Positions 11,114 through 52,435 of a stretch of 61,392 nucleotides of DNA are shown one piece after another. Position 1 is the first letter of the stretch. Each line of letters opens with the position of its first letter. Below the pieces are notes generated by a model, which saw nothing but the letters and a program-made list of their open reading frames with translations, did not search any database and was not told the origin of the DNA. Origin of the DNA: Poseidonia sp. (lineage in GTDB: Archaea > Thermoplasmatota > Poseidoniia > Poseidoniales > Poseidoniaceae); assembly GCA_030741355.1 (NCBI GenBank), contig JASLVM010000003.1, positions 1 to 61,392 on the forward strand, in the 5' to 3' direction. Both the position numbers and the translations under genes were made by a program.

Positions 11114-11148
11114 CCGTAAAATGTTCATTGACAACGAGAGGGAGCACC

Positions 11149-13377
11149 ATGGCAGACAAAGACGACACCATCGAACTACGCGTATCCAAAGCCATCCCTT
11201 CCGACGTCGGTTTCGGTAGGGCGCGTATCTCCTCGGAAATGGGCCTCGACCTCAAACCCGGCGACTTCGTTGAAATCAGTGGCGAAGAACGTTCGACGGC
11301 CGCCATCTATTGGCGAAGTCGGCCGGAAGACGCCAAAATGGACATCATCCGAATGGACGGTATCATTCGGAAAAACGCCGGCGTCAGTCTGGGCGACCGG
11401 GTAACGGTTCGAAAAGTCAAGGCCGAAGAGTGCAAGAAATTGACCATCTCTCCGGTCATGGCCAACAAGCAGAAGGTCAAGTTCGGTCCGGGGATAGAAG
11501 GCTTTGCCAAGCGAGGCCTTGCCAAGCGCCCCGTGGTGGCCGGCGACCGAATTTTCATCCCAGGGATGACGCTTTTCGCTGAAGCGCTTCCCTTTGCCGT
11601 CGTGCAAACCGTGCCCAAAGGCATCGTGGTGGTCACGACCGACACGGAGATCGTCATCAAGGACGAAGCCGTTGCAGAGGAAGACGTCGGCCAGTCCGAA
11701 GGCATCACCTACGAAGACGTCGGTGGTATCGGCCAGCAACTCTTGAAGGTTCGAGAGATGATCGAGTTGCCACTCAAACATCCTGAACTGTTCCGCAGAC
11801 TTGGTATTGACCCCCCCAAAGGGGTCTTGCTCCACGGGCCACCCGGCACGGGTAAGACGATGATTGCGAAGGCGGTCGCTACCGAGGTCAACGCCCACTT
11901 CAAGAGCATCAACGGTCCTGAAATCATCTCAAAATACTACGGTGAATCCGAGAAGCAACTTCGTGAAATCTTTGACGAGGCTGCCGACAACGCACCAGCC
12001 ATTGTCTTCATCGATGAAATCGACTCCATCTGTCCGAAGCGTGAAGACGTCACGGGCGAGGTTGAGCGTCGCGTGGTCGCCCAGATGCTGACCCTGATGG
12101 ACGGGATGCAAGGACGAGACAACGTCGTCGTCATCGGCGCCACCAACCGACGGGATGCGCTCGACCCAGCGCTTCGTCGCCCTGGGCGTTTTGACCGTGA
12201 AATTGAGATCGGCGTGCCCGACCGAGAAGGCCGCAGTGAAATCATGGACGTGCACACACGCCAGATGCCCATCGCCGACGATTTCGATATCTCGTGGGTG
12301 CTCGACAACACCTACGGTTTCGTCGGTGCCGACCTCGCTGCTCTCGTCCGAGAAGCTGCTATGCGTGCCTTGAGGCGGTATCTTCCAGAAATTGACCTCG
12401 ATGAAGAAACCCTCCCGCCAGAGGTTTTGGAGAAGATGGAAGTCTGCATGGACGACTTCAAGGAAGCCATTCGCGACATTGAGCCTTCAGCCCTTCGTGA
12501 AATCTACGTTGAGGTCCCTGAGGTTGGTTGGTCCGAAGTGGGTGGTCTTCAGGAAGTCAAAGACCGTCTCAAGGAATCCGTTGAATGGCCACTGACCAAG
12601 CCGGAATTGTTCGAACACTTTGGCATCAAGCCTCCACGAGGCATCGTGCTCTTCGGTGCACCTGGTACCGGGAAAACCTTGCTTGCAAAAGCCATCGCCA
12701 ATGAAGCGCAAGCCAATTTCATCAGCATCAAAGGCCCCGAACTCATTTCAAAGTGGGTCGGCGAATCCGAGCGGGCCATCCGAGAGATTTTCAAGAAGGC
12801 CAAGCAATCCGCGCCGTCGATTATCTTCCTCGATGAATTCGAATCCATCGCCTCCATGCGGAGCGGCGGGAGCGCTTCGGAAGGCAGCGATGTCGGCAAT
12901 CGCGTGGTGAACCAATTGCTGGCCAGCATGGACGGCGTCGAGTCCTTGGACGGCGTCATCATCGTGGCGGCCACCAACCGACCTGAGATGATTGACCCGG
13001 CCTTGTTGCGAAGCGGTCGTTTCGAGCGAGTATTGCACGTTCCCCCGCCCGACACAGGTGCAAGGGAAGCGATTTTCAACATCCACAGCGAAGGCATGCC
13101 ATTGAGCAAATTCTCGTTCAAGGACATCTTGACGGGCATGGACGGGTTCACCGGTGCCGATATTGAGGCTGTCTGCCGAGAAGCGGCCCTTATCTGCATG
13201 CGTGCTGGAAAGAAGAAGGTCACCAAGGCCCACTTCCAAGAGGCGATTTCACGGGTCCGCCCTACGGTCACACCGGACATGCTGGAGTACTATCAGAAGA
13301 TGGAGACACGCCTGACTTCGGGGTTGACCAACATCAAGCGAAACCGAGACTTCAGCCGTGGCATGGAAACCATGTGA
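11149..13377 (+). CDS. cdc48: Cdc48/VCP-type AAA+ ATPase (two AAA domains)
   Basis: N-domain (ELRVSKA..GDFVEI) and two Walker A motifs (GPPGTGKT, GAPGTGKT) with Walker B motifs (IVFIDEID, IIFLDEFE). ORF 11128 trimmed to MADKDD (ATG 11149). Confidence 0.95.
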   Translation: MADKDDTIELRVSKAIPSDVGFGRARISSEMGLDLKPGDFVEISGEERSTAAIYWRSRPEDAKMDIIRMDGIIRKNAGVSLGDRVTVRKVKAEECKKLTISPVMANKQKVKFGPGIEGFAKRGLAKRPVVAGDRIFIPGMTLFAEALPFAVVQTVPKGIVVVTTDTEIVIKDEAVAEEDVGQSEGITYEDVGGIGQQLLKVREMIELPLKHPELFRRLGIDPPKGVLLHGPPGTGKTMIAKAVATEVNAHFKSINGPEIISKYYGESEKQLREIFDEAADNAPAIVFIDEIDSICPKREDVTGEVERRVVAQMLTLMDGMQGRDNVVVIGATNRRDALDPALRRPGRFDREIEIGVPDREGRSEIMDVHTRQMPIADDFDISWVLDNTYGFVGADLAALVREAAMRALRRYLPEIDLDEETLPPEVLEKMEVCMDDFKEAIRDIEPSALREIYVEVPEVGWSEVGGLQEVKDRLKESVEWPLTKPELFEHFGIKPPRGIVLFGAPGTGKTLLAKAIANEAQANFISIKGPELISKWVGESERAIREIFKKAKQSAPSIIFLDEFESIASMRSGGSASEGSDVGNRVVNQLLASMDGVESLDGVIIVAATNRPEMIDPALLRSGRFERVLHVPPPDTGAREAIFNIHSEGMPLSKFSFKDILTGMDGFTGADIEAVCREAALICMRAGKKKVTKAHFQEAISRVRPTVTPDMLEYYQKMETRLTSGLTNIKRNRDFSRGMETM

Positions 13378-13444
13378 GGCTGGCCAAGCCACCGACGCAT
13401 TGATGGGATTCCAGCCCTCCAAGCAGAGTAAGGAGTCGTACCCC

Positions 13445-13684
13445 ATGGCAATTTTCGGTCGAGAAATCCTCGGAAACACCGTGGTTGACCGAACCGGCGC
13501 TTCAATGGGCGTGTTAACCGATATGCACTTTGACCTCAACACTGGCCTCATCAGTGAACTTTTGGTGGAGGTCGAAGCCGGTTTGGATCCTGCTGTGCTC
13601 CCCTTTGACCACGTGGGGAGGACGGTCAAAATCCCGGGTACGGCCGTTGCTCGTATCGCTGAAAAAATACATCTCAACACTTGA
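13445..13684 (+). CDS. PRC-barrel domain protein (79 aa)
   Basis: ORF 13358..13684 trimmed to ATG 13445. REILGNTVVDRTGASMGVLTDMHFDLNTGLISELLVE...KIPGTAVARIAEKIHL follows the stand-alone archaeal PRC-barrel pattern. Confidence 0.75.
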   Translation: MAIFGREILGNTVVDRTGASMGVLTDMHFDLNTGLISELLVEVEAGLDPAVLPFDHVGRTVKIPGTAVARIAEKIHLNT

Positions 13685-13786
13685 TTCACCGTGAAACATG
13701 GATGAGCATTTTATCCACTGGAGTGGACAACCTTCTAAAGTCATCATGCGCCGTGGAAGAGTGGGAATCCTCTCCCAGTGATTCGT

Positions 13787-15400
13787 ATGTTGGGCCTCCC
13801 TGCCAATTTCAACGCTCGAAGGTTGGCCCTTCAAGCGTCGTTTTGGGCGGTTATGCTCATTCTGCTGATGACCATTCTTTTGAATTTCATCAACCTCAGC
13901 GCCACGAATCAGCTCTCGGCCTACGATGATGATTGGAACGACATGTCAGCCTTCCGCGAGGACATCAAAGCGATGGGCATTGAAACCCGGTCACTGGTGA
14001 GCAGCCCGTTGCTTCTCTCCGACATCGAAGATCCACGCAACACGACCTACGTTCTGGCCGGTGTTGAGCGAGATACCCTTTCGTTGCCTCAGTTTGACGA
14101 TGATGGCTTCATCACGATCGCTTCAGGAGCTGGATATTCACCGTCGGAAATCAACGCCATCGTTGAGTTCGTCGAGGCCGGTGGCACCGCCATGGTGTTC
14201 GAAGACTACGGCTACGCCAACACCATCGCCGAAGCCTTCGGCATCCGCTACACCGGCGAACAGGTGTTCGACACCACCTACGCCACAGAACTGGATTTCA
14301 ACTACATCTGGATGTGCATCCAAAACAACCCTTGCGGCATGAACGGGACTCAACTCGACCCCTCGACGTTGTCCACTCATCAACGCTGGGCCAAGGAGGG
14401 AGGGCCCGGAGAACATCCATGCTCGAAACTCAATGAGCAAAATTTCCTTCCAGGTGAAGCCCCGCTTTGTGAGCAACACATGATCAACGGACGGGTTGAC
14501 TACAACGGTACCTACCAACTCTTGCTCAACAACATCACTGGGTTGGAAGTCATTCCAGGTGTCCGTGGTCCGCTGTCCGAAGTTTCCGTTCGAGCCCTCA
14601 CCAGTAACGAGGCCACGGTTGACGTGAACGGCGATGGCGAGATTTGGGTGGGCAACGAAATCACGCCCGAAACTCCTGACCGATGGGGTCAATTCAACCT
14701 CAGCATTGAGGCCTGTGCGAGAGCCAGCTGTTCGCCGAGCGACGGGGGGCGCATCGTCTTCGTTGCTGACGGTTCTACGCTCATCAACGCCATGTACGAC
14801 TACGAGGGCTTCAATCAAGGAGAATACGGGCCAACCGATACCCTGATGCCCGCCAATGACAACCGGAAATGGGCCCTTGACTTCATCGCCGAGGCCCTGA
14901 TGAGCGAGCGCGTGGATGAACCGGGCGAACCGGCCGAGAATGCGATGGTCATTTTTGACGAATCCCGCCACCCCCAAAGTGCACTGGCTGCTGATTCGTA
15001 CAACACCGTCTACTTCCTTTTGGTTTACTTCACCGGTGAAGGTTTGGCCATGCTCCTGTTGTTCCTCATTCTCTTCATCACCTTCGAAGCCGTGCTCATC
15101 AAGAAGCGTGACCCCGAACCTTGGCGACACGTTTTCAGCATCATTTACTACGGATTTGGCGACGCCAATCGCTACGCCTACTATTCCAAAGTGGAAAAAA
15201 TTCGACAGGTCTTCCTGTCCAAGGTTCGCAACCAAAACGGGTTGAATCGTGAAGAATTCCAGGCGATGAAAGCCAACGAATTGGTGTCGATGATCAACGA
15301 CCCGGTTCTTGCCAAATTCGCCGTTGAATCCAGCAATAAATACACGCTTGAACAAACCGTAGCGCTGGTCAAACGGATCAAGGCGTGGGGGCGCCAGTGA
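13787..15400 (+). CDS. DUF4350-like membrane-anchored protein
   Basis: N-terminal TM, an extracytoplasmic domain with VEAGGTAMVFEDYGY and VIFDESRHP segments, and a C-terminal TM. Sits directly upstream of a DUF58 gene. Start is ambiguous (GTG 13778 or ATG 13787). Confidence 0.55.
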   Translation: MLGLPANFNARRLALQASFWAVMLILLMTILLNFINLSATNQLSAYDDDWNDMSAFREDIKAMGIETRSLVSSPLLLSDIEDPRNTTYVLAGVERDTLSLPQFDDDGFITIASGAGYSPSEINAIVEFVEAGGTAMVFEDYGYANTIAEAFGIRYTGEQVFDTTYATELDFNYIWMCIQNNPCGMNGTQLDPSTLSTHQRWAKEGGPGEHPCSKLNEQNFLPGEAPLCEQHMINGRVDYNGTYQLLLNNITGLEVIPGVRGPLSEVSVRALTSNEATVDVNGDGEIWVGNEITPETPDRWGQFNLSIEACARASCSPSDGGRIVFVADGSTLINAMYDYEGFNQGEYGPTDTLMPANDNRKWALDFIAEALMSERVDEPGEPAENAMVIFDESRHPQSALAADSYNTVYFLLVYFTGEGLAMLLLFLILFITFEAVLIKKRDPEPWRHVFSIIYYGFGDANRYAYYSKVEKIRQVFLSKVRNQNGLNREEFQAMKANELVSMINDPVLAKFAVESSNKYTLEQTVALVKRIKAWGRQ

Positions 15401-15409
15401 GGTGAGAAG

Positions 15410-16663
15410 ATGTGGACCCGTAAAGCAGCCTTCACCTTCACCGGCGGTATTGCGCTGGTCTTGATTGGGATGATGATTTCCAATCAGCAAATGATGATCC
15501 TCGGATTGAGCCTCATCGCGTTCATCGTGGTGAATTCCTGGATTTCAGGGCATGGCGACGTCGAAGTTCAACGCACCTTGTCCGCTGACAATCTCTACAA
15601 AGGCGACGACCTGTACGTCGAACTCTTGGTGACCAACCGCAGCAACCGCAAAACGCAGATGCTCGACATCTACGACAACATTCCTCACGAGATGAAATTG
15701 CGCAGCGGGTTGAACCAGATGCAACTGAACCTCAAGCCCGGAGAGAGCGCTCGCATCCGCTATGTCTTGCGGTGTCCGCTTCGTGGTCACTATTCCATCG
15801 GCCCGGTTTCTTTGCGAGCTCGCAACACCTTCAACCTCGGTGTTGAAGAGATGTACGTCGACCACCACAGCGACATCGTCATCTTCCCTCAAATCAAGGA
15901 CATCGAGGAGGCGTTCCTCCGAAGCCGAACACCGAAGATGTACACCGGCGCCACCACCCTTCGCACCCCAGGGCAAGGCTCTGAATTCTATTCGCTTCGA
16001 GAATACGTCCCCGGTGACCCGTTCAAGAACATCAACTGGAAGGCGTTTGCTCGGACCGGCGACCTGATGGTGAACGAGAAGTGTCGGGACGCCGTCACCG
16101 ACTTGTATCTCCTTCTGGACAGTCGAGATTTAGCCCGCATCGGTACCGTCCTCAAGAATCCGCTCGAGATGGGCACGGTGTCTGCAGCCAGTCTTGCCGC
16201 CTTCTTCCTCAAGCGCCGGGATTCGGTGGCTTTGGCCATTTACGACGAGAAACTCTCCTATCTTCCGCCCGATACCGGAGACAAGCAGTATTTCAAAATC
16301 CTCAGTGCGCTTGCCGGCGTTCGTCCTCAAGGAGCGATGCCGCTGCAAGCCGTCACCAACTCACTGAGCGGCCGATTTAGCCGAGGAAGCCCCGTGTTCA
16401 TCATTTCCTCTTGTGAGGGCGACGGTACGGTGCCAGCCGCCGTTCGAGATTTGGTTGGTCGGGGCCATGAGGTCACCGTTCTCTCTCCATCAAGCGTGGA
16501 TTTCGAACGCTTGGTCAGCCGAATCCCTCGTATGTCCTACGAGGTGCTGAAACTCGAGCGACAAAACCGGTTAACGACGTTGGCCGGTTCTGGGGCCCAA
16601 GTCATCGATTGGATGCCGGACATGGATTTGTCCCAGGCCTTGATGCAGGTAAGGGGGTACTGA
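15410..16663 (+). CDS. DUF58 domain-containing protein
   Basis: Hallmark segment GSEFYSLREYVPGDPFKNINWKAFARTGDLMVNE after two N-terminal TMs. GGTGAG Shine-Dalgarno sequence lies 3 nt before the ATG. Confidence 0.8.
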   Translation: MWTRKAAFTFTGGIALVLIGMMISNQQMMILGLSLIAFIVVNSWISGHGDVEVQRTLSADNLYKGDDLYVELLVTNRSNRKTQMLDIYDNIPHEMKLRSGLNQMQLNLKPGESARIRYVLRCPLRGHYSIGPVSLRARNTFNLGVEEMYVDHHSDIVIFPQIKDIEEAFLRSRTPKMYTGATTLRTPGQGSEFYSLREYVPGDPFKNINWKAFARTGDLMVNEKCRDAVTDLYLLLDSRDLARIGTVLKNPLEMGTVSAASLAAFFLKRRDSVALAIYDEKLSYLPPDTGDKQYFKILSALAGVRPQGAMPLQAVTNSLSGRFSRGSPVFIISSCEGDGTVPAAVRDLVGRGHEVTVLSPSSVDFERLVSRIPRMSYEVLKLERQNRLTTLAGSGAQVIDWMPDMDLSQALMQVRGY

Positions 16664-16664
16664 G

Positions 16665-17882
16665 ATGGCGGGTGAAGTGGGTCTCCAATCGGACGTCTAC
16701 CTCGACGGTGCAGCCAAGCCCCGCACCCTTCACCTGAAGAACCTCCGTCGCCAGTGGCAAATACTTGCTTTGCAGATCATCGCTACCGTGGCCTTGATTG
16801 GCATGTACCTCGAAGTTGTTTCAACCTACGTGGTCGGTTCCATTGACCACACCATTCTCTTCGATTCCATTGAACTGCTCATCTCTGACCAGTTGCCGCT
16901 GGGAGACTGGCTCACCGGCGAGGGTCGCAGCGGCATGGGTCGTTTCTTTGTGCCCCTCGTTTTGGGGCTGAGTCTCGGTGGAACGATGGCCATCATCGCC
17001 TTCCAATCGCCGAAGGTCCAACAACGCATTAAACTCGGATTTATCGTCGGTCTCATCGTTTTGCTCGTCGGTCGATTGGTGCTCTCATGGTTCGCAGGCA
17101 TGTTGTTTTCCTTTGACTTGCGCCTTCCAACCAATGCGGAATTGGAAACGTTGCAGTGGCCGTTGCTGATGATCATGTCCTTGCTGATTCTCTTCATCTA
17201 TCTCCTTCCCGTCATCATGGGGACGCGTGGTATTTGGGGGCTGTCTCGGCGTTCCATCGCTTGGGCCATCGGGTTCACCTTGTTGTTCCTCGGCATACAC
17301 GCCATCCTGACCTTCCCGCTCATCAAGTCGCAATTGGGCTCCTACGGTGGGGCATTGACCACACTGGAAAGTCAAACCTCGGACCCCACCATCGGTTTAT
17401 TCGGGCTGAAATTGGTGACCCAAGAGCAGTTCAATTTGATTCTCATCGCGGTGCTCATCATGGTGTTCCAAGAAGCGAGCTACGGCGTCATTCGCAACCT
17501 CGAGTACGCCTTCCGCCTCCCTGAATCGTGCAAGCGAGACCCGGAATATGTTCGCCAAATGGACAACGTTCTCAACACCCATCTCCGCCACACCTTCCTG
17601 TTCTTGGGTTTGACCGGTCTTGCCACCATGGTGGCCCTCGGGTTCCACAAGGTGTTGCTCACCATCGTATCGGATACCACCGGAAGTCAATGGGCAGGCC
17701 AAGTTTCAGAGTCCATTGAACTGACCCTCACATACGGCCTTGTGATCTCTGCTTTGCTCTTCTTGAGCATCATGGCGGTGCTCCGCTTCTTCATTCCATG
17801 GCAGCGGGTGATTGGTTTCATTCAATCTCGTACCAACAGCCTCCCGCCCGAGCCGGAGTCGAAGGATTTCACCCAACTATGA
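16665..17882 (+). CDS. hypothetical polytopic membrane protein (405 aa)
   Basis: The ATG is 1 nt after the DUF58 stop. About 9-10 hydrophobic helices and no recognised motif. Confidence 0.6.
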   Translation: MAGEVGLQSDVYLDGAAKPRTLHLKNLRRQWQILALQIIATVALIGMYLEVVSTYVVGSIDHTILFDSIELLISDQLPLGDWLTGEGRSGMGRFFVPLVLGLSLGGTMAIIAFQSPKVQQRIKLGFIVGLIVLLVGRLVLSWFAGMLFSFDLRLPTNAELETLQWPLLMIMSLLILFIYLLPVIMGTRGIWGLSRRSIAWAIGFTLLFLGIHAILTFPLIKSQLGSYGGALTTLESQTSDPTIGLFGLKLVTQEQFNLILIAVLIMVFQEASYGVIRNLEYAFRLPESCKRDPEYVRQMDNVLNTHLRHTFLFLGLTGLATMVALGFHKVLLTIVSDTTGSQWAGQVSESIELTLTYGLVISALLFLSIMAVLRFFIPWQRVIGFIQSRTNSLPPEPESKDFTQL

Positions 17883-18131
17883 CGCCCTCATCTGCTGCAA
17901 CAGGCGTCCAGCCAGTTCAACAGCGGCCAACAATGCAAGCGGATAAGCAATGTAAGCGACAAAGGGGCCGAGCAACTCATGGCCAACCGCTTCGTTCACA
18001 TCGGAACTGAAGAACACGAAGGCGAACACCGCTGCGAGGAGGAATAAGCGTTCAACCCAGAGAGGGTAGGGCTTTCCAAGGGCTTCTTCTCGACCCATGA
18101 TGGTGGTGGTCTCGCTCGACATGTTGATCAT
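17877..18131 (-). CDS. small two-TM membrane protein (84 aa)
   Basis: ATG 18131 overlaps the stop of the 1058-aa gene (TGATG). Two hydrophobic helices (LFLLAAVFAFVFF and FVAYIAYPLALLAAV). Confidence 0.55.
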   Translation of the reverse strand: MINMSSETTTIMGREEALGKPYPLWVERLFLLAAVFAFVFFSSDVNEAVGHELLGPFVAYIAYPLALLAAVELAGRLLQQMRAS

Positions 18132-21100
18132 CAAAAGTCGAGGTCAGAGAGTCTTGATTCCAAGTCGGCCAACGCCGTGTCCTTTGATGGCGTAGCAACC
18201 GGGTCATGAGCCGTTCGATGTGTACGTTCAGCATCCAGTCGAGCCAGTTCAGCCTCCAACTGGGCGCGCTCATCGTCCAGGCCTGATGAAGAGGTCGGGG
18301 TGAAGGCCGTTGATGCCTCGGTTTGAGCACCGCCTTCGTCATCGGTTGGTGGGGGGAGTGGCGACCATCCTTCGTCGTCCACCGACTCGGTGTCGGTCTT
18401 CACAATCGAAACCTCCTCGGCCTGCACCAGATGCGGTTCGAGGTCGTTCAGCATGGCCTCATTGACGGGTATTCGCTGCTCAGCGGGAATGGATTCACGT
18501 TCAAACGGTAGCAAACCATCACGCTGGAAATCCCACATCATGCCGCGTGGTCGACCGTCGGTCAATCCAGAGGCGTCGAGTTGGGTGATGAGTTCCTCAA
18601 GCACCCGAGCAGTTTCTTCCAAACCGATGGCTTCTCCGGCATCGCGCTGGTCGGCCTCAAGGTAGATGTCATCAAGGGCCACTTGGATGAGTTTTCTCGT
18701 ACCGAGGGCCAAACTTGGCAGTGCTTCAGGTCGCTGGCAGTTGGCGAGCAGAGCATGGACTTCGTGGGATGGTGCCCCGAGACGTTCCACCTGTTCCAAC
18801 ACATTTCGAATTCGTCGGAGCATCGTGATGGAGCGGTCGAAATCCTCCAGGAGATGTTCCAAATCAACCACGACGTGGTTGACCGTTTCTCCCAATTGTT
18901 GCTCCAGACGTTGTTGAACAGACCATCGGGCCAAACCTCGTACGGCTCCAGCCGTTTGAGGAACTTGACGCTCAAGGAGCGTCATGACCTCAGAAGAGAG
19001 GAGGTGGCGCGGCGTTGCTGCAACATGGTCCACCGTGCCCTGAATCACTTGGAGGGCACGTTCAACTGCACGGTCGAGCATGGTGACCGAATAACCGAGG
19101 CCTCGTGCGTGCTCAAGGCGTTCAAGAACCGGGCCGAGCCCTTGGAAGGTGTTGTTGTCGTCCAGCAAGGCCTGAGCAAGCGGCTCTTCAGCGAGGCGGG
19201 CTCGCAATCGCTCGGCTTCTTGGATGTCGGCAAGCGCCTCTTCATGGGCTTCAGCCAACGAGGTGGCCTTGTCCACCAGGGATGCGAGTTCCGCTTCTGC
19301 GTGCCCTCGTCGTGCCCCTAAATCACCCAACTCACGAAGCACTTGGCGTCGTTCATCCATCAACTCTCGAAGTTCCGCCTGAATGTTAGAACGGCGTGAT
19401 TCTTCCTCAGCGCGTCGGACGCGGTCTTCTTCCGTGCGATTTCGGGCGTGTTTTTCCTCCGTACGTGCGGCTTCAAGTTCCAAATTACTGACGTGAACCT
19501 GCTCTTGGGCGGTGATCAAATCCGATTGCACCCGGGCATGGCGCTCACGACTGGTGTTGACCTGTTCGCTCAAGACACGCAAACGGCGTTCTTCGTCCTC
19601 GCTCTGCTTCCGGATGGTGTTGAGGCGTTCACTGCCCTCCGCAAGATTGGCTTGTAATTCCGCTTCTTTGAGTGACAGGCTTTCGATGGCTTCCTTCAGT
19701 TCAGCGCTGCTCCCTGCATCACCGATGGCCTTGGCGAGCTCAGCCGCTCGTTCACTGACTTGGTGTTCCAACTCGTTGACTCGACGAACCAATCGCTCGG
19801 CGCGAGATTCGGCCTCTTCGGATTGCCCTCTTGCTTGTGCAAGGTCGACCTGCATGGTGTTGAGTTGTGCGTGGGCGTCTTCCAGTGCCGTGCTGTTTTC
19901 TTGGCGAGATTCCGTTGCTTCTCTGGCGACGATTTGTGCGGCGTCTTTCTTTTTCTCCAAAGCCTTTACTTGGCCTTCCAAGACCGCTTTGCTCTTGTTG
20001 AGTACGTCAATGGTCTGTTCGGCCTTTTCCAACTTCCTTCGAAGGCCAGCATCCACCGCTGCAACCGCTTCGTCTCGCATGACGGGTAGCGGTTCTGCGA
20101 CATCAGCACCGTCGGATTTGAACGCCATCTTTGCGCGTTCCTTTTGCAACGCCTCAAGCCCCGCATGGAATCCCAGCATGTCGTCCAGGAGGCTCTTGAG
20201 CGATGCTTGCCGGGCTTCTGAACGTGTTCGCACCGTCGCAAGAGATTGGATGAACCCGGACAGTGTGAACGTGTCAACCGTCCCGGAGGTGGCGGAGACG
20301 ATGGTTCCGGCGGGGAATCGAATGAGTTGCACCTTTCTCTTCGCCTCGGTGAGTGCCATCATCGCTTCTTCTTCGCTGTCGTAGGCCGGGGCCCACAAGG
20401 CAACGGGTGTGCCACGGGAGAGCACCAACGACACGCCTTTGCTGGAAGAGCCGGATTGGATATGCCCTGTGACTTCCTCGTCCAAGCCGGCTTTCAACAT
20501 TGAAATCACGGCGTCAGGGCCACCTCGACCGTCTCGGAGCGTGAACCCCTCTGGCATTTTTGATCCGTGAGCACCTGCGGCCACGATATCTCCGTCCAAA
20601 GCGATGGAGGCGGAGGAAAGAAGGCGAGCATGGTTGGCGTCTTTTTCGGTCCAAACAGCGAGTGATATCTCTCCGCTTTGAGCCAACAAGAGAGCTCCGT
20701 TTTCCGTGTGGAGGGTCCAATGACTCTGGCCTTTCATGCCCCATTGGCTGTGAAGTTCCTGCCCGCCCATGGCGGCCATCATCTGGTGAAGTTCACTGGC
20801 CAGGCGTTCTTCTTCGCCAAGGCCGGGAAGATCGCCGACGTGGTCAATGAGCATCCCGCTGTCAATGGCCATCGCTCCTCGCACCGTCGTGTTGGTTTCG
20901 AGGGTTCTGATGACGGTGGAAAGGTCGCGAGAGAGGAGTCGTTCCACGGCGTTGGTTGAGGACTTCAGGCCTTGACGGTCGGCCTGGTGGACAAAAGCCT
21001 CCGGCACGAGTTCGGCAAGACTTCCAAGTTCACCCATGCTGTAGGACGTGGCGAGGTGTCGGAATTTTTGCTCTGCTTCAAGATGTTCTAAACGGAGCTT

Positions 21101-21307
21101 GGCCTCAACGCCTCCAAGCAGCGTGTTCTTCTTCTCTGCATCAGCGAGGTAGCCGACGATTCGGCCACCACGGACGAGTCGATGGCCCACCGGTGTTTTG
21201 CGGCGGCCGAGGTAGGTCGAAATAGCGCCGTGAGCAAAGGACTGAAGCACCCCTTCTTCCAGTGTGATCGTTTCGTTGATGGGGGTTCCTGCTGGTAATT
21301 CAAACAT
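18131..21307 (-). CDS. 1058-aa Roadblock-like / long coiled-coil protein with acidic tail
   Basis: Long uninterrupted ORF. Residues ~122-235 follow the Roadblock/LC7 pattern. Residues ~415-705 are E/R/A/L/Q-rich coiled coil. Then comes a helical domain and an acidic C-terminus ending LSDLDF. No Walker motifs seen. Confidence 0.8.
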   Translation of the reverse strand: MFELPAGTPINETITLEEGVLQSFAHGAISTYLGRRKTPVGHRLVRGGRIVGYLADAEKKNTLLGGVEAKLRLEHLEAEQKFRHLATSYSMGELGSLAELVPEAFVHQADRQGLKSSTNAVERLLSRDLSTVIRTLETNTTVRGAMAIDSGMLIDHVGDLPGLGEEERLASELHQMMAAMGGQELHSQWGMKGQSHWTLHTENGALLLAQSGEISLAVWTEKDANHARLLSSASIALDGDIVAAGAHGSKMPEGFTLRDGRGGPDAVISMLKAGLDEEVTGHIQSGSSSKGVSLVLSRGTPVALWAPAYDSEEEAMMALTEAKRKVQLIRFPAGTIVSATSGTVDTFTLSGFIQSLATVRTRSEARQASLKSLLDDMLGFHAGLEALQKERAKMAFKSDGADVAEPLPVMRDEAVAAVDAGLRRKLEKAEQTIDVLNKSKAVLEGQVKALEKKKDAAQIVAREATESRQENSTALEDAHAQLNTMQVDLAQARGQSEEAESRAERLVRRVNELEHQVSERAAELAKAIGDAGSSAELKEAIESLSLKEAELQANLAEGSERLNTIRKQSEDEERRLRVLSEQVNTSRERHARVQSDLITAQEQVHVSNLELEAARTEEKHARNRTEEDRVRRAEEESRRSNIQAELRELMDERRQVLRELGDLGARRGHAEAELASLVDKATSLAEAHEEALADIQEAERLRARLAEEPLAQALLDDNNTFQGLGPVLERLEHARGLGYSVTMLDRAVERALQVIQGTVDHVAATPRHLLSSEVMTLLERQVPQTAGAVRGLARWSVQQRLEQQLGETVNHVVVDLEHLLEDFDRSITMLRRIRNVLEQVERLGAPSHEVHALLANCQRPEALPSLALGTRKLIQVALDDIYLEADQRDAGEAIGLEETARVLEELITQLDASGLTDGRPRGMMWDFQRDGLLPFERESIPAEQRIPVNEAMLNDLEPHLVQAEEVSIVKTDTESVDDEGWSPLPPPTDDEGGAQTEASTAFTPTSSSGLDDERAQLEAELARLDAERTHRTAHDPVATPSKDTALADLESRLSDLDF

Positions 21308-21317
21308 GCTTGTTCAC

Positions 21318-21659
21318 CTACATTTCTTGGGTTGTTGCCAGTTGAGGGCGGAGATGGTCCATGGAATGCCTCCACCGTGCAATGTTGCCTTTTGTTCCGG
21401 CTAACATGACGATTCTGTAGGGCGTGAGGATGTCAATGAGGACCTGATCCTCGCCCTCGATCCACAGTTCGTGCATGTCGCCTTGGTCGTGGTTCTGGAC
21501 CGCATCCAACGCAGCGACCGTCAACTCAACTGCACGGTCCACGGGAGGGAGTTGCCCTTCCGTGCCAACGCTGGAAAGCAATTTTCCTCGGTCGTCCATC
21601 ATCATCGCTTGCTCCACGCCGTCAATCTTGAGAAATTCCCCCAGAAGACGTTGCAACAT
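21318..21659 (-). CDS. Roadblock/LC7 (MglB-like) domain protein (113 aa)
   Basis: LLGEFLKIDGVEQAMMMDDRGKLLSSVG...LTVAALDAV...MHELWIEGEDQVLIDILTPYRIVMLAGTKGNIA matches the alpha-beta-alpha Roadblock layout. Stop lies 10 nt before the giant gene. Confidence 0.7.
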   Translation of the reverse strand: MLQRLLGEFLKIDGVEQAMMMDDRGKLLSSVGTEGQLPPVDRAVELTVAALDAVQNHDQGDMHELWIEGEDQVLIDILTPYRIVMLAGTKGNIARWRHSMDHLRPQLATTQEM

Positions 21660-21870
21660 GCCTGCTCAACCTGATTGACAGCGCTGTAGCCTTCAAGAAG
21701 TTTTGCGCTTGGCTGAAGAAATATGGCGGTTTGAGCACCTTTCGCTTTTTTCCAACTGGAAAATAAGTTTCTTCCTCTCTCTGATGAGGCGCTTCAATCG
21801 TTTCCAGTCCATTGAACAGCGGAGATTCTCACTCCTGCAGGGGTGAAGTTCAACCCGGATGTGCGATGAA

Positions 21871-21910
21871 ATTTTCCAATTAAAGATTCAATTTTTCAAT
21901 TGAAGAATTC
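21871..21910. repeat. tandem AT-rich ~20-nt direct repeat in divergent promoter region
   Basis: ATTTTCCAATTAAAGATTC (21871-21889) is followed by ATTTTTCAATTGAAGAATTC (21891-21910). Confidence 0.6.
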
Positions 21911-21981
21911 GATATCAAAATCTGGTGGCACCCTCCTCCTCTGCCGCTCATTTGAAACCCTACCTCTGTTGAGGCGTAACC

Positions 21982-22995
21982 ATGGGAGGCGCAGGTTCGG
22001 AGGGGTTGTTCACCGTTCCAACGTGTGACGCTTGTGACAAACCTGCCGTCGTCGAACAAGCGTATTCCGGGCGCATCTTGTGTGGAAAGCATCTGGCAAA
22101 ATCGGTGCGAAAGAAGATCAGTAAGGAATTGCGCCTTCAATTGCCACTGAAAAAAGGCGAACATACCACGGTTCTTGTTGCTGTTTCAGGAGGGAAGGAT
22201 TCAGCCGTCTTGCTCGATGCCTTGGTTGACCTCATTGGGAAACGAAGGGATGTTACCATCGTTGCCGGAACGGTTGATGAGGGGATTGAGGGGTACCGCC
22301 CTCCCTCCATTGATTGCGCAGCATCGCTATGCGAACGACTTGGCGTTGAGCACCATGTCGTAACCTATCCAGAACTCTCCTTTATCGAAATGGACGAGGT
22401 GGTTCAACGCCTTCCCATGGCGATTCAGAAAGACAACGATGCTCCACGAATGGCTTGCTCTTACTGCGGTGTTTTCCGTCGCCAAGGCATCAATCACCTT
22501 GCGGAGCGACTCGGTGCAGACGTCATCGCTTTGGGGCACAACCTCGACGACATGGCCCAGACCGTGCTCATGAACATGGCCAACGCCGATATTGAACGCA
22601 CGTTGCGCCTGGCCCCTCATACGGCTACACCGGTTGACGGTCTGTCTCCTCGAATCGTACCGCTACGTTGGGTTCCAGAACAGGAGGTTCACCTCTATGC
22701 TCTCCACCGCAACCTCCCGCTTCATCACGAGGAATGCCCGAATGCACGTGGTGCTCTTCGGTGGCGACACCGAGAGATGGTGGCGCAGATGGAAGCCGAT
22801 GTTCCGGGGACTCGACACGGTCTTGTTCGCATGGCCGACCAAATCAAAGGGCTTCGCGACCAAGTGGTGGCGTTGGGTGGAGAAGGACAACGGCCTGCTC
22901 CTCCTACGCCCTGTCCTCGCTGTGGAAGTCCAAGTTCAGGGGCGCAGTGCAAGGCCTGCGATATGCGGGATTTGCTCGGTGTCGAAAACGATTAG
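21982..22995 (+). CDS. PP-loop tRNA 2-thiolation ATPase (TtuA/NcsA family)
   Basis: PP-loop VAVSGGKDSAVL, an N-terminal CDAC..CGKH zinc finger and a C-terminal CPRCG..CKAC zinc finger. Confidence 0.85.
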   Translation: MGGAGSEGLFTVPTCDACDKPAVVEQAYSGRILCGKHLAKSVRKKISKELRLQLPLKKGEHTTVLVAVSGGKDSAVLLDALVDLIGKRRDVTIVAGTVDEGIEGYRPPSIDCAASLCERLGVEHHVVTYPELSFIEMDEVVQRLPMAIQKDNDAPRMACSYCGVFRRQGINHLAERLGADVIALGHNLDDMAQTVLMNMANADIERTLRLAPHTATPVDGLSPRIVPLRWVPEQEVHLYALHRNLPLHHEECPNARGALRWRHREMVAQMEADVPGTRHGLVRMADQIKGLRDQVVALGGEGQRPAPPTPCPRCGSPSSGAQCKACDMRDLLGVEND

Positions 22996-23471
22996 ATCAC
23001 GTTGTTGGCCAGTTCGTCAAGGTCCTGTGGGCGGCCGCAGTAGTGGCACCTCAATTCAAGCGGGACTCTTGAGAGGATCTTCAACCGGTGGGCGAGGGGT
23101 TCGCGAGGGTTCGTCGTGATGCAATTTGAAAATGTGCATCGGACGACGTTGGTGATTTCATCGCCCAACTCAATCGTCAGTTTCTCGGCGACACTGTAGG
23201 CTCGAATAATGGCCACATGGGCATCGGGTGCAACGAGGGCGAGGCGATTCAATTCGTCTTGATTCAATTCGCGGTCTTCCACTTTGATGATGTCTTTGGT
23301 GCCCATTTTCTTCGAGGGAACGTTCATGACCATGGAAACAGGAACCGATGAGGTTTTGTTGATTCCTAGCATTTCCAAGACTCGCATGGCTTGACCAGCA
23401 GGAATGTGGTCGATGACGGTCCCGTTGCGGATGGCCGTCACTCTTCGCATGTTGTGTTCTTGAGACATCAA
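22992..23471 (-). CDS. pyrI: aspartate carbamoyltransferase regulatory subunit
   Basis: VTAIRNGTVIDHIPAG N-domain and a C-terminal Zn domain (CTFSNCIT..CHYCGR). The start overlaps the pyrB stop. Confidence 0.93.
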   Translation of the reverse strand: MMSQEHNMRRVTAIRNGTVIDHIPAGQAMRVLEMLGINKTSSVPVSMVMNVPSKKMGTKDIIKVEDRELNQDELNRLALVAPDAHVAIIRAYSVAEKLTIELGDEITNVVRCTFSNCITTNPREPLAHRLKILSRVPLELRCHYCGRPQDLDELANNVI

Positions 23472-24409
23472 GCACCACCTCCAATGTCTGCAGGGACCTC
23501 AATGTTGAGCAAACGGCACAAGAGGGCCATGCGAGCCACCACCCCGTTGAAGGCTTGCTCGAAATACCGAGCATGACGCGTTTGGTCGACCGAAGGGTGG
23601 ATTTCGTCCACGCGAGGGAGAGGATGCATGATGATCATGTCTTCTTTGGCTCCTTCGAGATTGGAAGCGTGGAGTTTGTATGCACCGGCAACTTTGGCGT
23701 ATTCATCTTCGTCAGCGAAGCGTTCTTTTTGGATGCGAGTCATGTAGACCACATCAGCTGTTTCAAGTGAACCGAGCAAATCTTCTGTTTCGGTGATGTT
23801 TGCTCCGTGAGCGTTCAGGTCGTTGACGATCTCTTTGGGCATTTTCAACAGACTCGGGCTGGCGAGAACGAGTTCGCAACCAAATCGAATGAGGGCATGG
23901 CTCAGCGAATGGACGGTTCGGCCGTAGCGGAGGTCGCCTGCAAGGATGACTTTGAGGCCGTCCAGTCGGCCGTGTGCTTGCTGTATGGTGAACAAGTCAA
24001 GCATGGTTTGGGTAGGGTGGTGGCCGGCACCATCGCCGCCGTTGAGAATGGGGACTCTTGCTGCATCCTGAGCGTATTGTGCAGCACCTTGTCTCGGATG
24101 GCGCATCGCGATGATGTCGGTGTAACCGTCCACCATCTGAATGGTGTCAAACAGCGTCTCGCCCTTGACCACGGAGGAGGTTTTCACATCACCGAGGTTC
24201 ACCACATCGCCACCAAGTCGTTTCATGGCGGTTTCAAAGGACATACGGGTTCGGGTGCTCGGTTCGAAAAACAGATTGCCCAAAATTTTGCCCTGCAAAA
24301 GGGGAAGGTAGGTCTCGCCTTGAGCAACGGGCAGCAAGCGTTGGGCATCATCCAAGATGCTCAGTATTTCTTCGTTGGATAAATCATCCATGGTAATGAG
24401 TCCCGGCAT
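23468..24409 (-). CDS. pyrB: aspartate carbamoyltransferase catalytic subunit
   Basis: ORF 23468..24910 trimmed to MPGLITMDDL (ATG 24409). Motifs FFEPSTRTR, HPTQ and HPLPR. Confidence 0.95.
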   Translation of the reverse strand: MPGLITMDDLSNEEILSILDDAQRLLPVAQGETYLPLLQGKILGNLFFEPSTRTRMSFETAMKRLGGDVVNLGDVKTSSVVKGETLFDTIQMVDGYTDIIAMRHPRQGAAQYAQDAARVPILNGGDGAGHHPTQTMLDLFTIQQAHGRLDGLKVILAGDLRYGRTVHSLSHALIRFGCELVLASPSLLKMPKEIVNDLNAHGANITETEDLLGSLETADVVYMTRIQKERFADEDEYAKVAGAYKLHASNLEGAKEDMIIMHPLPRVDEIHPSVDQTRHARYFEQAFNGVVARMALLCRLLNIEVPADIGGGA

Positions 24410-24512
24410 GGTGTTCCCTCGTAAGTCTTCACACCCCGATAACACCCTTGAACATTGCCGCTGTGTTGGTTCGCTCACAAGGGGCCGCCTCGTCCAAATC
24501 ATCGGAGTGATT

Positions 24513-26297
24513 ATGGGGAACAGCACTGAGGCCCTCACCATGGTCACCTGGGCGGATGCAGACGCAGCCGTTGAAGCCGAGCGGGCCCAGCGAGCAAAAC
24601 GGGTAGAAAACGCCACGTTGTTCACTGCGCTATCCCTGTTGGTATGTTCGGTTTGGCTCGCCTGGCCCTCCATCAAGGGGTTGATGGAAGGTGACGGGGT
24701 GGTGCTCACCAGTTTTGGAGCCCCTCTGGTTCTCTTGATATGGGGGATTTTTGTACAAGATTTGACCCTTGACGACGCCGTTGCTCGTTCTCGTGTCGCC
24801 TCAGCCACCAGTATTGCTTGGCCCGTGCTTCTCTGTTTGGGGGCTTTGGGGCTTGACGGCAACCGTCTGGAAATCATCGGAAGCGTTTTGATTATTTTTT
24901 CGGGCCTCATGTGCCGCCAACTCTCTCACCAAACGATGCGGGGAAACTTCGGCGTGCTTCGTTATCGGGCTGTTCTGACCGGTATCGGGTCGGCTTCAGC
25001 GCTTGCTTTGACCCTGACGCAAAGCGAAACACTGCTCTCACTCTCTGGAGGAACAGCAGGTCTGGTGTCCGCCTTTTCTGTGCTTGACACCGTCTATACG
25101 TGGACGGTTGGCGATGACCAAAAAGTTGAGCGAAAGCAATTCAAGAAACGCCTCGATGTTTTGGAAACCCGCCTCTTGGAACTCAAGGCTCAAGGCGCTG
25201 CCGTGGCTCAAGCCGCGAGTTTGCTGACGACAGCAAAAGAAGAAGGGCATTTGGATCCTGAATACGGCATGCGCTTGTTGGACGAGAGTGAGGAGGACAT
25301 GGAGCGAGCCCTCTCACTGGCCGACGATGTTGAAATCATCCGGAAGGACGCCCTTGACGCCGTGACCGCCGCCGAGGACATCGCCCCCACTGCCAAACGC
25401 CCACGTAAAGCGTATGATATGGGTGAGCGCGAGGTAAAACTCGGTTCCTTGAGGGAAGGCGAACTCCTCTATCGTCAGGCGAAAAAACGAGCCGCTGATA
25501 TCATCGCATGGTGGTCGAAAGCAGAAGGGGTTATCCTCGAGGCCACGCGGGCTCTTGACGGAAAGCAAGGGGCCGGTGTCTCGCATCTCAGAGAATTGTT
25601 GAACGATGCGAAAACAAAGCTCTCACAAGAACAGCCCAAGGAGGCGTACGAGTTTGCCATCGCAATTTTACCTCAATTGGAAGCGGATGAAGGAGCCCTT
25701 GAACGAGCTAAAACCTCGCTTGTGGAAGCCAGGAGGACCGTTGACCAAAGTGACGGCTTGGATACGGAGGAGTTTGAGGAACGCTTGCAGCAAGCCGAAC
25801 AAGCGCTTGAGGCTGGAAACGCCAGTCAAGCCATTGGCCTGGCGGATGGTGTGGTTCGAACGGTTGAGCGAGAGCGCGCAGCGATGGACGATGTCCTTCG
25901 TGCGTTGAAACAAAAGAAGCAACTCACCAAACGCTACCAAACTCGAGATGACCGTGAGACATGGGACGGCTTGCTTCAGGAGATCATCGACGCTGCCGAC
26001 CAACGCCTTTGGTCCCATGCCGGCATGCTGTTGGAACGCATGACTTCGGCGCTGGACAAAGAAGGGCACGCAAGCGAAGAGGCCAAGGAACTCTACGATT
26101 TCGTTATCGAGCAATGGAAGGTCCTCAGAAACCAATGCGAAGCAGCGAACATCAAGGTGGTGGATGAGGACCGGCGCGCTTGCGAAGAGGCGATTGCTGA
26201 GGCAGAAAGTGCCCTTCAGGGCGGTCGTGTCAAGTCCACCTTGGACGCCCTCGGTCAGGCCGATGCTGCGATGGAGCGCTTGCGCCGAAGAATTTGA
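24513..26297 (+). CDS. membrane protein with C-terminal alpha-helical repeat domain (594 aa)
   Basis: ORF 24357 trimmed to ATG 24513. About 5-6 N-terminal TMs, then ~380 aa of E/A/L/R-rich helical hairpin repeats. Confidence 0.65.
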   Translation: MGNSTEALTMVTWADADAAVEAERAQRAKRVENATLFTALSLLVCSVWLAWPSIKGLMEGDGVVLTSFGAPLVLLIWGIFVQDLTLDDAVARSRVASATSIAWPVLLCLGALGLDGNRLEIIGSVLIIFSGLMCRQLSHQTMRGNFGVLRYRAVLTGIGSASALALTLTQSETLLSLSGGTAGLVSAFSVLDTVYTWTVGDDQKVERKQFKKRLDVLETRLLELKAQGAAVAQAASLLTTAKEEGHLDPEYGMRLLDESEEDMERALSLADDVEIIRKDALDAVTAAEDIAPTAKRPRKAYDMGEREVKLGSLREGELLYRQAKKRAADIIAWWSKAEGVILEATRALDGKQGAGVSHLRELLNDAKTKLSQEQPKEAYEFAIAILPQLEADEGALERAKTSLVEARRTVDQSDGLDTEEFEERLQQAEQALEAGNASQAIGLADGVVRTVERERAAMDDVLRALKQKKQLTKRYQTRDDRETWDGLLQEIIDAADQRLWSHAGMLLERMTSALDKEGHASEEAKELYDFVIEQWKVLRNQCEAANIKVVDEDRRACEEAIAEAESALQGGRVKSTLDALGQADAAMERLRRRI

Positions 26298-48339: not shown

Positions 48340-49299
48340 ATGACGGTGAGAGCCTTTGTGGATGAACACTTTCGCCACTTCAACGCGGGTACTCTTCGCC
48401 GAGCCGTGGATTCATTGGTTGACCATCTCGAACAGGGCGGAGGTCTCTTTGTTACGCTCGCCGGAGCCATGAGTACGGCAGAAATAGGGCGCAGTCTCGC
48501 TCAAATGATCCGTGCGGGCCATGTGTCTGCCATTTCGTGTACGGGAGCCAACCTCGAGGAGGACGTGTTCCACCTCGTTGCACGCGATGACTACGTTTCC
48601 GTTTCGTCCCCCGATGACCTCACGGCTGAAGATGAAGTGGCGTTGTTGGAGCAGCAATTGAATCGTGTTACGGATGTCTGCATTCCAGAGGAAGAAGCCA
48701 TTCGAAAGATTGAGCATGCCCTGATGGAGGTCTGGACCCAGGCTCAAGCCGACGGTGAATCGCTCCTCCCTCATCGCTTCCTCTATCGACTTCTTCTTTC
48801 GGATGCTCTTCGCTCCTCCTATCAGGGGCCACCCGAACATTCCTGGCTCTTGGCTGCGGCGGAATGCGACCTCCCGCTTTACGTACCCGGATGGGAGGAT
48901 TCAACCCTCGGAAACATCTTCGCTGCCCGCTGCTCACAGGGTGTACTTTCTCCCGAACTTGTGTTGAGTGGCACCCATTACATGACGCATCTCATGGATT
49001 TCTATCGGCATTCAACTCAGCCGTTGGCTTTCTTGCAATCCGGTGGAGGCATCGCCGGAGATTTCCCGATTTGCGTTGTACCCCTTTTGCATCAAGACTT
49101 GGGTGAAGTGGACGTGCCGCTGTGGGCCTGGTTTTGCCAAATCACGGATGCCACAGCGTCTTACGGCGGTTATTCAGGTGCTCCTCCTAACGAGAAAATA
49201 TCATGGGGCAAACTTGGCCTTGAAACGCCCCGGTTCAACATACAGAGCGATGCTAGCATCGTTCTTCCCCTGATATTTGGCTACGTTCTGGACCTCTGA
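48340..49299 (+). CDS. dys: deoxyhypusine synthase
   Basis: FVTLAGAMSTAEIG, ISCTGANLEEDVF and WGKL near the C-terminus. The ATG is 3 nt after the previous stop. Confidence 0.9.
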   Translation: MTVRAFVDEHFRHFNAGTLRRAVDSLVDHLEQGGGLFVTLAGAMSTAEIGRSLAQMIRAGHVSAISCTGANLEEDVFHLVARDDYVSVSSPDDLTAEDEVALLEQQLNRVTDVCIPEEEAIRKIEHALMEVWTQAQADGESLLPHRFLYRLLLSDALRSSYQGPPEHSWLLAAAECDLPLYVPGWEDSTLGNIFAARCSQGVLSPELVLSGTHYMTHLMDFYRHSTQPLAFLQSGGGIAGDFPICVVPLLHQDLGEVDVPLWAWFCQITDATASYGGYSGAPPNEKISWGKLGLETPRFNIQSDASIVLPLIFGYVLDL

Positions 49300-49351
49300 G
49301 GAGGACCAATGCCCCCAAAGTCTTGAAAGGGAGCCGTCCCACATTGAAACC

Positions 49352-52300: not shown

Positions 52301-52435
52301 GACGGGACCGATGGCCTGAGTAGCGCCGTTCTCGGTGGACTTGGATTGGTGGTCCTCGTCGGTGCGATTGCTGTTTTGACCGTGCTTGCCCGCCGTGGCG
52401 GGGAAGGTGGCGGCGACCGATTTGGCATGCAATGA
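49352..52435 (+). CDS. giant secreted surface protein (1027 aa) with three C-terminal Ig-like modules and TM anchor
   Basis: ORF 49277 trimmed to MTTQRRLASALMMALLVATVLPLHVQA (signal peptide). Many N-x-S/T sequons. The C-terminus is the TM helix VLGGLGLVVLVGAIAVLTVLA followed by RR. Confidence 0.8.
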   Translation: MTTQRRLASALMMALLVATVLPLHVQADDTPSVRITTHWVGQGTTDTVHAYMLTFSDNGTYGFEVEMNHVHNGSQLPTSHSITWGSEAGMRTALLEFNSSLSWGDSVDLGITITDHDDAENLDIETVRSFVVGLWNQPMDDHEVLLSTSWELDQSFETTTGDQNFTLSFTGQGWQERVGDTLSSWELGNGTFATVESTAEGVSELDLVLTQVWKNETVVAGVLTSQVFDARGFGDLRTEVIDGETTTVIDADVSHAMLNRSIINGVVGERLSLEATGLLNVSEDDGENNSLAIDGELAVFFFEYEDVDGVRVLQHTQFEAMADFVLIEDDTRLDVSLDGFSSLVRWEDGVRTQHLEELYGDGTFGFAGEEENASLQVNGTILDLHTKLENGTTLIDDLHVDGTLTGDVQGSFGVVRGIETTGMQANVSGQEFLVNVIFQETWFNITGVNGGNFFDGAGVGATHNQTWDYQAVQSDWDNRTVRLVWRETGPDASEGEDFPEHSPLQQNATAPLAEESLGDLTVGRETGWMPIPLNTNDRLRLNGQEGLTLTVEVGETRTDVRDGHNLSVIDWTGVYEGSGETGTATGAVVVDGPLKGLLSTVERSLSLPFGDENESVMLQETQVLERVLSPEIVSADDNHPPVISQIGWREGIAVGEGGGVAHLQATVEDAEWNVMSVQADLTALGLGEVELNDRGLDGDLAVGDDVYTASVIIPGLEIGSFSVNISATDTFGAMATGEEMLEVSNQPPRLVNVEIVPSSLERGQSVVVNIEAYDGHGVRSVHIDLRSYGGEVVNLTSESGSGLWAAMIEMPVGMTPGHQSLLVVAEDEQGAVSQQRVYTPSANGVGDTVFGPHHVDQAVSLPVEVHILNDRPTIVSSASTVEKDTEATVHYTVEVNDPDGIERVQINLGVFTPIGGQTWAFMHDDGVNGGDDVAGDGVYSVALSIRDGTPLGTHEISLRAVDNYGELNTASTVITLKEGQGSTDGTDGLSSAVLGGLGLVVLVGAIAVLTVLARRGGEGGGDRFGMQ

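Follow-up and report, generated by a model that had tools for sequence, protein, structure and literature searches.

A conserved gene trio of Poseidoniales combines Roadblock/LC7 domains with a long coiled coil and a predicted membrane hairpin

Dimers of Roadblock or longin domains are established platforms in Ragulator and in MglB (PMC3747258; PMC10933270). Here we compare the described Roadblock systems with three genes of Poseidonia sp., of the archaeal order Candidatus Poseidoniales (formerly Marine Group II), which lie at 17877-21659 on the minus strand of a stretch of 61,392 nucleotides (nt; contig JASLVM010000003.1); this whole stretch is called the window below. The trio consists of g1, a stand-alone Roadblock/LC7 protein, g2, a rod protein of 1058 amino acids (aa) that we call the giant, and g3, predicted to be a small membrane hairpin. 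The trio is real, widespread and uncharacterised. As its likeliest though tentative reading we propose a lineage-specific, membrane-associated, rod-shaped scaffold, one end of which bears a Roadblock platform, a function that we infer from architecture only.

The MglB/MglC pair of the Myxococcus xanthus polarity module, which includes MglA and RomR/RomX, has the same Roadblock/LC7 fold, and structures 6hjm and 6izw were among the top Foldseek matches of the giant. Like the trio, it has two paralogous Roadblock units encoded together, and the Myxococcus polarity proteins FrzS and AglZ have long coiled coils. Unlike MglB/MglC, the trio has no MglA-type GTPase next to it or in the window, has a Roadblock domain fused into a 1058-aa rod, is archaeal and is only ~20% identical. 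Ragulator (LAMTOR1-5), taken here together with the C-terminal domains of the Rag GTPases, is a membrane-anchored docking platform of Roadblock heterodimers; LAMTOR2, 3, 4 and 5 were among the structural matches, and the Pfam LAMTOR5 model reached E=0.014 against the consensus of the giant’s Roadblock domain. In contrast to the trio, Ragulator has no coiled-coil rod, has GTPase partners with Roadblock-fold C-terminal domains and is eukaryotic, and its anchor is the lipidated LAMTOR1 rather than a two-helix hairpin. Dynein LC7/Roadblock is the member of the superfamily found in a eukaryotic motor complex and, unlike the trio, has no membrane component. The best structural and sequence-profile matches were Roadblock proteins of Asgard archaea (7f8m, 7yh1 and 9jue). 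These small archaeal dimers stand alone and are discussed in connection with small GTPases (PMC10933270), with no reported fusion to a coiled-coil giant or pairing with a membrane hairpin. By analogy, the trio would resemble Ragulator, MglB/MglC or dynein LC7 in its working, but it belongs to none of them.

No publication describing the trio was found in the literature on archaeal Roadblock and coiled-coil proteins, DUF2226, the Poseidoniales cytoskeleton and Thermoplasmatota small GTPases. A preliminary description of the locus, made from the sequence alone, could match it to no described archaeal system. A paper that reports 199 protein families consistently associated with Poseidoniales does not discuss the trio (PMC9258230).

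Domain composition of the three proteins

The genes, the predicted domains of their products and the region upstream are listed in the order of transcription, with the evidence in brackets.

21660-21981: intergenic region of 322 nt upstream of g1, the presumed operon promoter region, common with the divergent NcsA gene
21318-21659, minus strand: g1, 113-aa stand-alone Roadblock/LC7 protein (list of open reading frames, ORFs; Pfam Robl_LC7)
18131-21307, minus strand: g2, the giant or rod protein, 1058 aa (ORF list; homologs)
20963-21307, minus strand: giant aa 1-115, alpha/beta domain of unknown family (AlphaFold2, predicted local distance difference test score, pLDDT, ~90: four strands, helix, strand, helix)
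20582-20950, minus strand: giant aa 120-242, Roadblock/LC7 domain (AlphaFold2, Foldseek, consensus Pfam score, hhalign)
20264-20566, minus strand: giant aa 248-348, third alpha/beta domain, of unknown family (AlphaFold2: beta-alpha-beta-beta-beta-alpha-beta)
20066-20263, minus strand: giant aa 349-414, linker that runs into the coiled coil and includes a long helix (aa 364-392 in AlphaFold2)
19193-20065, minus strand: giant aa 415-705, heptad coiled coil (3.5-residue periodicity; length conservation)
19709-19750, minus strand: giant aa ~520-533, conserved register shift with the motif ELAKAxGDAxS (periodicity, with the shift at aa ~513-533; alignment)
18473-19192, minus strand: giant aa 706-945, all-helical C-terminal domain (AlphaFold2, pLDDT 80-92)
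18134-18472, minus strand: giant aa 946-1058, acidic disordered tail ending LSDLDF (AlphaFold2; composition)
17877-18131 (84 aa from ATG) or 17877-18134 (85 aa from TTG), minus strand: g3, predicted two-helix membrane hairpin

The ORFs and the sequence bear out the tight linkage of three minus-strand genes at 17877-21659 that the preliminary description had given. The g1 stop codon (TAG) is followed by 10 nt and the giant’s ATG, with an AGGTGA Shine-Dalgarno-like motif overlapping the g1 stop, and the giant’s TGA shares its A with the ATG of g3, so that the two overlap as TGATG. The upstream region, earlier called 320 nt long and AT-rich, has about that length (322 nt) but is only modestly AT-rich, with a guanine plus cytosine content of 45.7% vs a window mean of 55.5%. 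Across it the tRNA-thiolation gene NcsA/TtuA is transcribed divergently from g1.

Sequence models point to Roadblock/LC7 membership of g1, in which the preliminary description had seen this pattern. The g1 of the window scored 21.1 bits (E=2.6e-4) against Pfam Robl_LC7 (PF03259), just below the curated cutoff of 23 bits, and the consensus of the g1 family scored 31.3 bits (E=1.8e-7), which is above the cutoff and places the family in Robl_LC7 by sequence. The model was matched at E<=0.01 by 17 of 22 diverse members of the family (best 7.7e-6), and a search of PDB sequences with the family profile gave two matches only, the Roadblock entries 7f8m and 9jue. g1 is therefore a divergent stand-alone Roadblock/LC7 protein.

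The AlphaFold2 model of giant aa 1-410 (12-sequence alignment, mean pLDDT 80) comprises three alpha/beta domains, the second of which, at aa 126-238, has the Roadblock topology alpha-beta-beta-alpha-beta-beta-beta-alpha. Foldseek of this N-terminal model against the PDB gave 82 matches at E<=1e-3, and the 50 listed were all Roadblock, MglB or LAMTOR; the best for the Roadblock domain were 7f8m, 6hjm (MglB), 9jue and LAMTOR, with E ~5e-6 to 1e-4 and a target-normalised template modelling score (TM-score) of ~0.7. A Pfam scan of the window’s giant sequence alone gave no match to Robl_LC7, and three of 12 individual homologous domains matched it (best E=1.9e-4). The domain consensus scored 28.3 bits (E=1.5e-6), which qualifies for membership by sequence. 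In hhalign, the g1 family and giant aa 120-242 aligned in equivalent register at E=1.1e-3. These data identify giant aa ~120-242 as a divergent Roadblock/LC7 domain, in accordance with the second Roadblock-like segment earlier proposed at aa ~122-235.

The two domains that flank it had no Pfam match, and the third domain had no PDB match either. A suspected identity as PATAN/DUF4388 or DUF2226 domains was unsupported by Pfam, PDB profile and hhalign searches; ten domain sequences and the consensus sequences, scanned with Pfam at E<=10, gave a single DUF2226 match at E=0.087 and none to DUF4388. hhalign of the first domain against the third gave E=0.11. When the N-terminal model was compared with viral structures by Foldseek, nothing significant was found and only weak longin-like or profilin-like matches appeared.

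The coiled coil begins after the linker, which is 66 aa long in 36 of 39 homologs. Hydrophobic periodicity at aa 415-705 had a power of 3.22 at 3.5 residues vs a shuffle mean of 0.13, and none of 2000 shuffles reached 3.22. The heptad register is unbroken at aa ~408-512 and ~527-680. The preliminary description had called this coiled coil of ~290 aa uninterrupted; the heptad coiled coil stands, but it is not strictly uninterrupted because one conserved register shift lies at aa ~513-533. In an alignment of 39 diverse homologs, filtered to <=85% identity, the coiled coil is 291 aa long in 31 and 288-291 aa long in all 39, even at ~33% identity to the window’s protein. This near-invariant length suggests the role of a spacer or ruler rather than that of a generic filament. 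The only profile matches of the coiled coil were to the coiled-coil arms of SMC, Rad50 and JetC.

The helical domain and the acidic tail ending LSDLDF, which had been noticed after the coiled coil, were both recovered by AlphaFold2 and composition. No other part of the giant is as conserved as the helical domain (aa 706-945), which has a column conservation of 0.73-0.93 and remains 46-58% identical even in the most distant homologs; it found no Foldseek match in the PDB (best E 0.37) and none by PDB profile or Pfam. The tail has a pLDDT <50 at aa ~961-1007, followed by two helices, and contains 25 D/E vs 7 K/R; its length among homologs is 80-148 aa. Three tail motifs are kept order-wide, namely W..P.P.D, DERxxIExELARLD, and LxxLExxLSDLE followed by a hydrophobic C-terminal residue. 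The pattern LxxLExxLSDLE at the C-terminus is typical of partner-binding peptides and may mark one here. A GW..LP.P.DD motif at aa ~976-990 (window ~18338-18382) is kept in both families of the order amid a poorly conserved tail. Reading the C-terminal LESRLSDL as an MIT-interacting (MIM1-like) motif was dropped because its Arg is not conserved among homologs.

g3 carries two hydrophobic segments, and its family keeps the motif G[RK]xYPxxxER before helix 1, a Pro within helix 2 and ExxGRxxQ after helix 2. A short acidic loop joins the helices, with no K/R in the displayed sequences. If the positive-inside rule applies, the two conserved motifs would lie on the cytoplasmic side, as the giant presumably does. 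g3 is accordingly predicted to be a conserved two-helix membrane hairpin, and the earlier assignment of two helices holds across the family.

Distribution and gene order

The trio recurs throughout one order of archaea. Homologs of the giant form >500 clusters, all of them without protein names and all from Candidatus Poseidoniales. When 1.84 billion representative proteins were searched exhaustively by HMMER with giant aa 1-410, which lie outside the coiled coil, 65 matched, all of them this family or its fragments; the full-length homologs among them are 1020-1089 aa long with the N-terminus equally placed, so that the architecture is conserved. Scanning one genome per GTDB species placed relatives in at least 239 species; every relative that could be identified belonged to Poseidoniales, and the best 80 of these were all Poseidoniales except for one contig labelled Verrucomicrobiales. 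The giant on that contig (locus L007, NZEQ01000033.1, "Verrucomicrobiales bacterium ARS100") is 99% identical to the window’s, and the contig almost certainly comes from Poseidoniales and was mis-binned with a bacterium. The named members cover Poseidoniaceae and Thalassarchaeaceae, which are both families of the order.

Homologs of g1 were found by phmmer at 79 of 86 loci and homologs of g3 at 82 of 86; the misses fell at contig ends and in one very divergent lineage. That lineage (L001-L003) has an upstream 100-aa gene whose product begins MIERVIHSLTRLEGV, resembling the MLQRLLGEFLKIDGV of g1, and keeps a g3 homolog (KKYPLWIER..., found by eye). Across more than 80 related loci the gaps between the genes mostly lie between about -32 and +12 nt; the few exceptions come from start calls of the longest ORF. 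Synteny extends over the whole stretch from Cdc48 to PyrB at the related loci with inspected gene calls, those of the most divergent lineage among them, and the trio sits at one syntenic housekeeping position in Poseidoniales. The conservation in relatives on which the preliminary description had made its proposal depend is thus found in both families, with the gene order kept, and the trio belongs to the core genome as an operon confined to the order Poseidoniales.

Possible functions of the trio

In the scaffold that we tentatively propose, the giant would dimerise through its coiled coil, and a parallel dimer would form a rod ~43 nm long (calculated at 0.148 nm per residue). The Roadblock domains in cis, together with g1, would form a canonical Roadblock dimer platform, built from g1:giant pseudo-heterodimers or, alternatively, from stacked homodimers. 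This platform may dock or regulate a partner encoded elsewhere, possibly a nucleoside triphosphatase (NTPase). At the other end the C-terminal domain or the tail motifs may bind g3 through the motifs that it turns to the cytoplasm, or else other partners, and the rod would thereby be fixed to the membrane.

Several points weigh against this proposal. That g1 pairs with the giant and that g3 anchors it are guesses based on the adjacency of the genes, and the partner NTPase is hypothetical. An antiparallel hairpin of the coiled coil, folding back at the conserved stutter, could give a different geometry. Adjacency alone is weak evidence for a functional link because the whole neighbourhood is syntenic and may reflect vertical descent. 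In L001-L003 (~11221-12859) a gene for an FG-GAP beta-propeller protein of 448 aa, with a hydrophobic segment at its N-terminus, stands between the giant and g3, so translational coupling of g3 is not obligatory. Both the synteny and the FG-GAP gene agree with an explanation in which nothing but common descent keeps the three genes together and g3, perhaps also g1, is functionally unrelated to the giant. We regard this as quite improbable, since the genes lie on the same strand with stop and start codons overlapping or nearly abutting in the great majority of the 80+ loci, the same rare domain occurs in both g1 and the giant, and all three families are equally narrow taxonomically. Linkage is better supported by these overlapping codons and by the domain in common than by adjacency.

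A more specific form of the scaffold, which we consider somewhat unlikely, would be a previously unrecognised device of the cytoskeleton or of cell polarity, confined to Marine Group II. In it a hairpin-anchored rod of ~43 nm would carry a Roadblock head that recruits or switches an NTPase and would thereby organise a process at the cell envelope or pole, such as division, placement of the archaellum or pilus, or envelope spacing. The partner would be of a defined kind if the trio were a regulator of the MglB type, in which the two Roadblock domains are a GTPase-activating or guanine nucleotide exchange platform for a Ras-like GTPase encoded elsewhere, and the rod and g3 only position that activity at the membrane or pole. 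MglB is not known to supply a diagnostic catalytic residue for which a sequence could be inspected. Among the top structural matches are MglB with MglA (6izw), MglB alone (6hjm) and LAMTOR, some family members carry the IMG label ‘predicted regulator of Ras-like GTPase’, and Roadblock dimers typically bind small GTPases (PMC10933270). Against these stands the survey for GTPases, which extended over ~61 kb in this genome and over +/-10 kb in related ones: Pfam scans of selected ORFs (nearly all >=200 aa) found no small GTPase in the window, no MglA-family GTPase lies within four genes of the trio, which is the distance used in PMC4316618, and none was called at the related loci inspected. We therefore hold a regulator of this type to be unlikely. 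The preliminary description had treated the missing GTPase as remarkable, which overstates the case; among prokaryotic MglB homologs Wuichet and Sogaard-Andersen counted 328 of 749 (44%) as orphans without MglA within four genes, and none of these had been characterised (PMC4316618). Since orphan Roadblock proteins are this common, the missing GTPase is not in itself unusual, and their frequency also counts against a GTPase regulator. The same description had found no GTPase or NTPase motif in the trio or its flanks. This holds for the trio, which has neither a Walker A nor an NKxD motif, and for small GTPases, but the flanks hold NcsA, a PP-loop ATPase, and the AAA+ protein Cdc48 ~4.5 kb off. 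Altogether the NTPases of the window are NcsA, Cdc48, an ABC ATPase, Hsp70, a thermosome subunit and a ParA-type ATPase (Mrp/NUBPL), none of which is an expected Roadblock partner.

An NTPase could also be dispensable. Dynein LC7/Roadblock is not known to need a GTPase and works as a dimer clamp on an elongated subunit, and the Roadblock domains of the trio may likewise be a dimerisation clamp only, joining the heads of a structural coiled-coil protein. Such a clamp agrees with the lack of NTPase motifs in the trio, with an invariant rod length that suits a structural spacer, and with the place of dynein LC7/Roadblock in the same superfamily (PMC4316618). It is nevertheless an unlikely account, as a parallel coiled coil would already dimerise the giant, so that a free g1 is not obviously needed, and two further conserved head domains flank the Roadblock domain. 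Far less credible still is a giant that handles chromosomes or DNA as an SMC, Rad50 or MukB-like protein. It was matched by NCBIfam SMC (E=3e-11), by Rad50 and by PADLOC JetC models; however, the SMC and Rad50 matches cover aa ~336-846 only, that is, the coiled coil and adjoining helices, and score 41.8 bits vs a cutoff of 567 bits. The giant has no Walker A motif, its N-terminus is a Roadblock region and not an ABC ATPase head, and its C-terminal domain matches nothing. There is no hinge and no CxxC zinc hook, with a single Cys in the protein, and the only break is the ~10-residue stutter that contains Gly/Ser. With SMC, Rad50 and JetC the giant thus has in common a long heptad coiled coil only; membership in these families is effectively refuted by the absent heads and by matches far below cutoffs. 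The preliminary description had made an SMC/Rad50-type identity with ATPase heads a ground for giving up its proposal, and this ground falls away. PADLOC models matched the giant at the coiled-coil arms of JetC only (E=5e-6, aa 359-660) and gave no match to g1, g3 or the neighbouring 405-aa protein; a defence-island reading is rejected because of this lack of a system match and the conserved housekeeping position.

Poseidoniales are among the most abundant archaea of the surface ocean. To our knowledge they have never been cultured, so their cell biology is wholly unknown. A Roadblock platform, a ruler-like coiled coil, a novel helical domain and a membrane hairpin are the kinds of parts from which bacteria and eukaryotes build polarity and scaffolding machines. 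If the trio is such a machine, it offers a concrete entry point into the organisation of the Poseidoniales cell, and it would place Roadblock domains in a new architecture beyond the Asgard/eukaryote line. Even as a lineage-specific structural protein and no more, it would still merit structure determination, since no known fold matches its C-terminal domain.

Neighbouring genes

On the plus strand, 11128-17882 holds a tight run of five genes that converges on g3 and overlaps it by 6 nt. Its members are the Cdc48 AAA+ ATPase, a PRC-barrel protein, a DUF4350 protein, a DUF58 protein and a 405-aa multi-pass membrane protein; the last of these stands beside g3 and had no Pfam match. The run recurs at related Poseidoniales loci, the most divergent lineage included. 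A DUF58/DUF4350 cluster next to Cdc48 without a MoxR ATPase, of which there was none in the window or at the loci inspected, is unusual.

Four further large proteins of the window have little or no annotation. These are a 646-aa membrane and long-helical protein (24357-26297), an 841-aa TPR protein (26298-28823), and two proteins of 1052 aa (49277-52435) and 734 aa (233-2437) that both lack a Pfam match. The mechanically called ORF of 480 aa at 23468-24910 on the minus strand is an over-extended aspartate carbamoyltransferase (PyrB). Its true start is internal, probably near MPGLITMDD, because homologous loci call ~304-308 aa, and PyrI follows it at 22992-23471.

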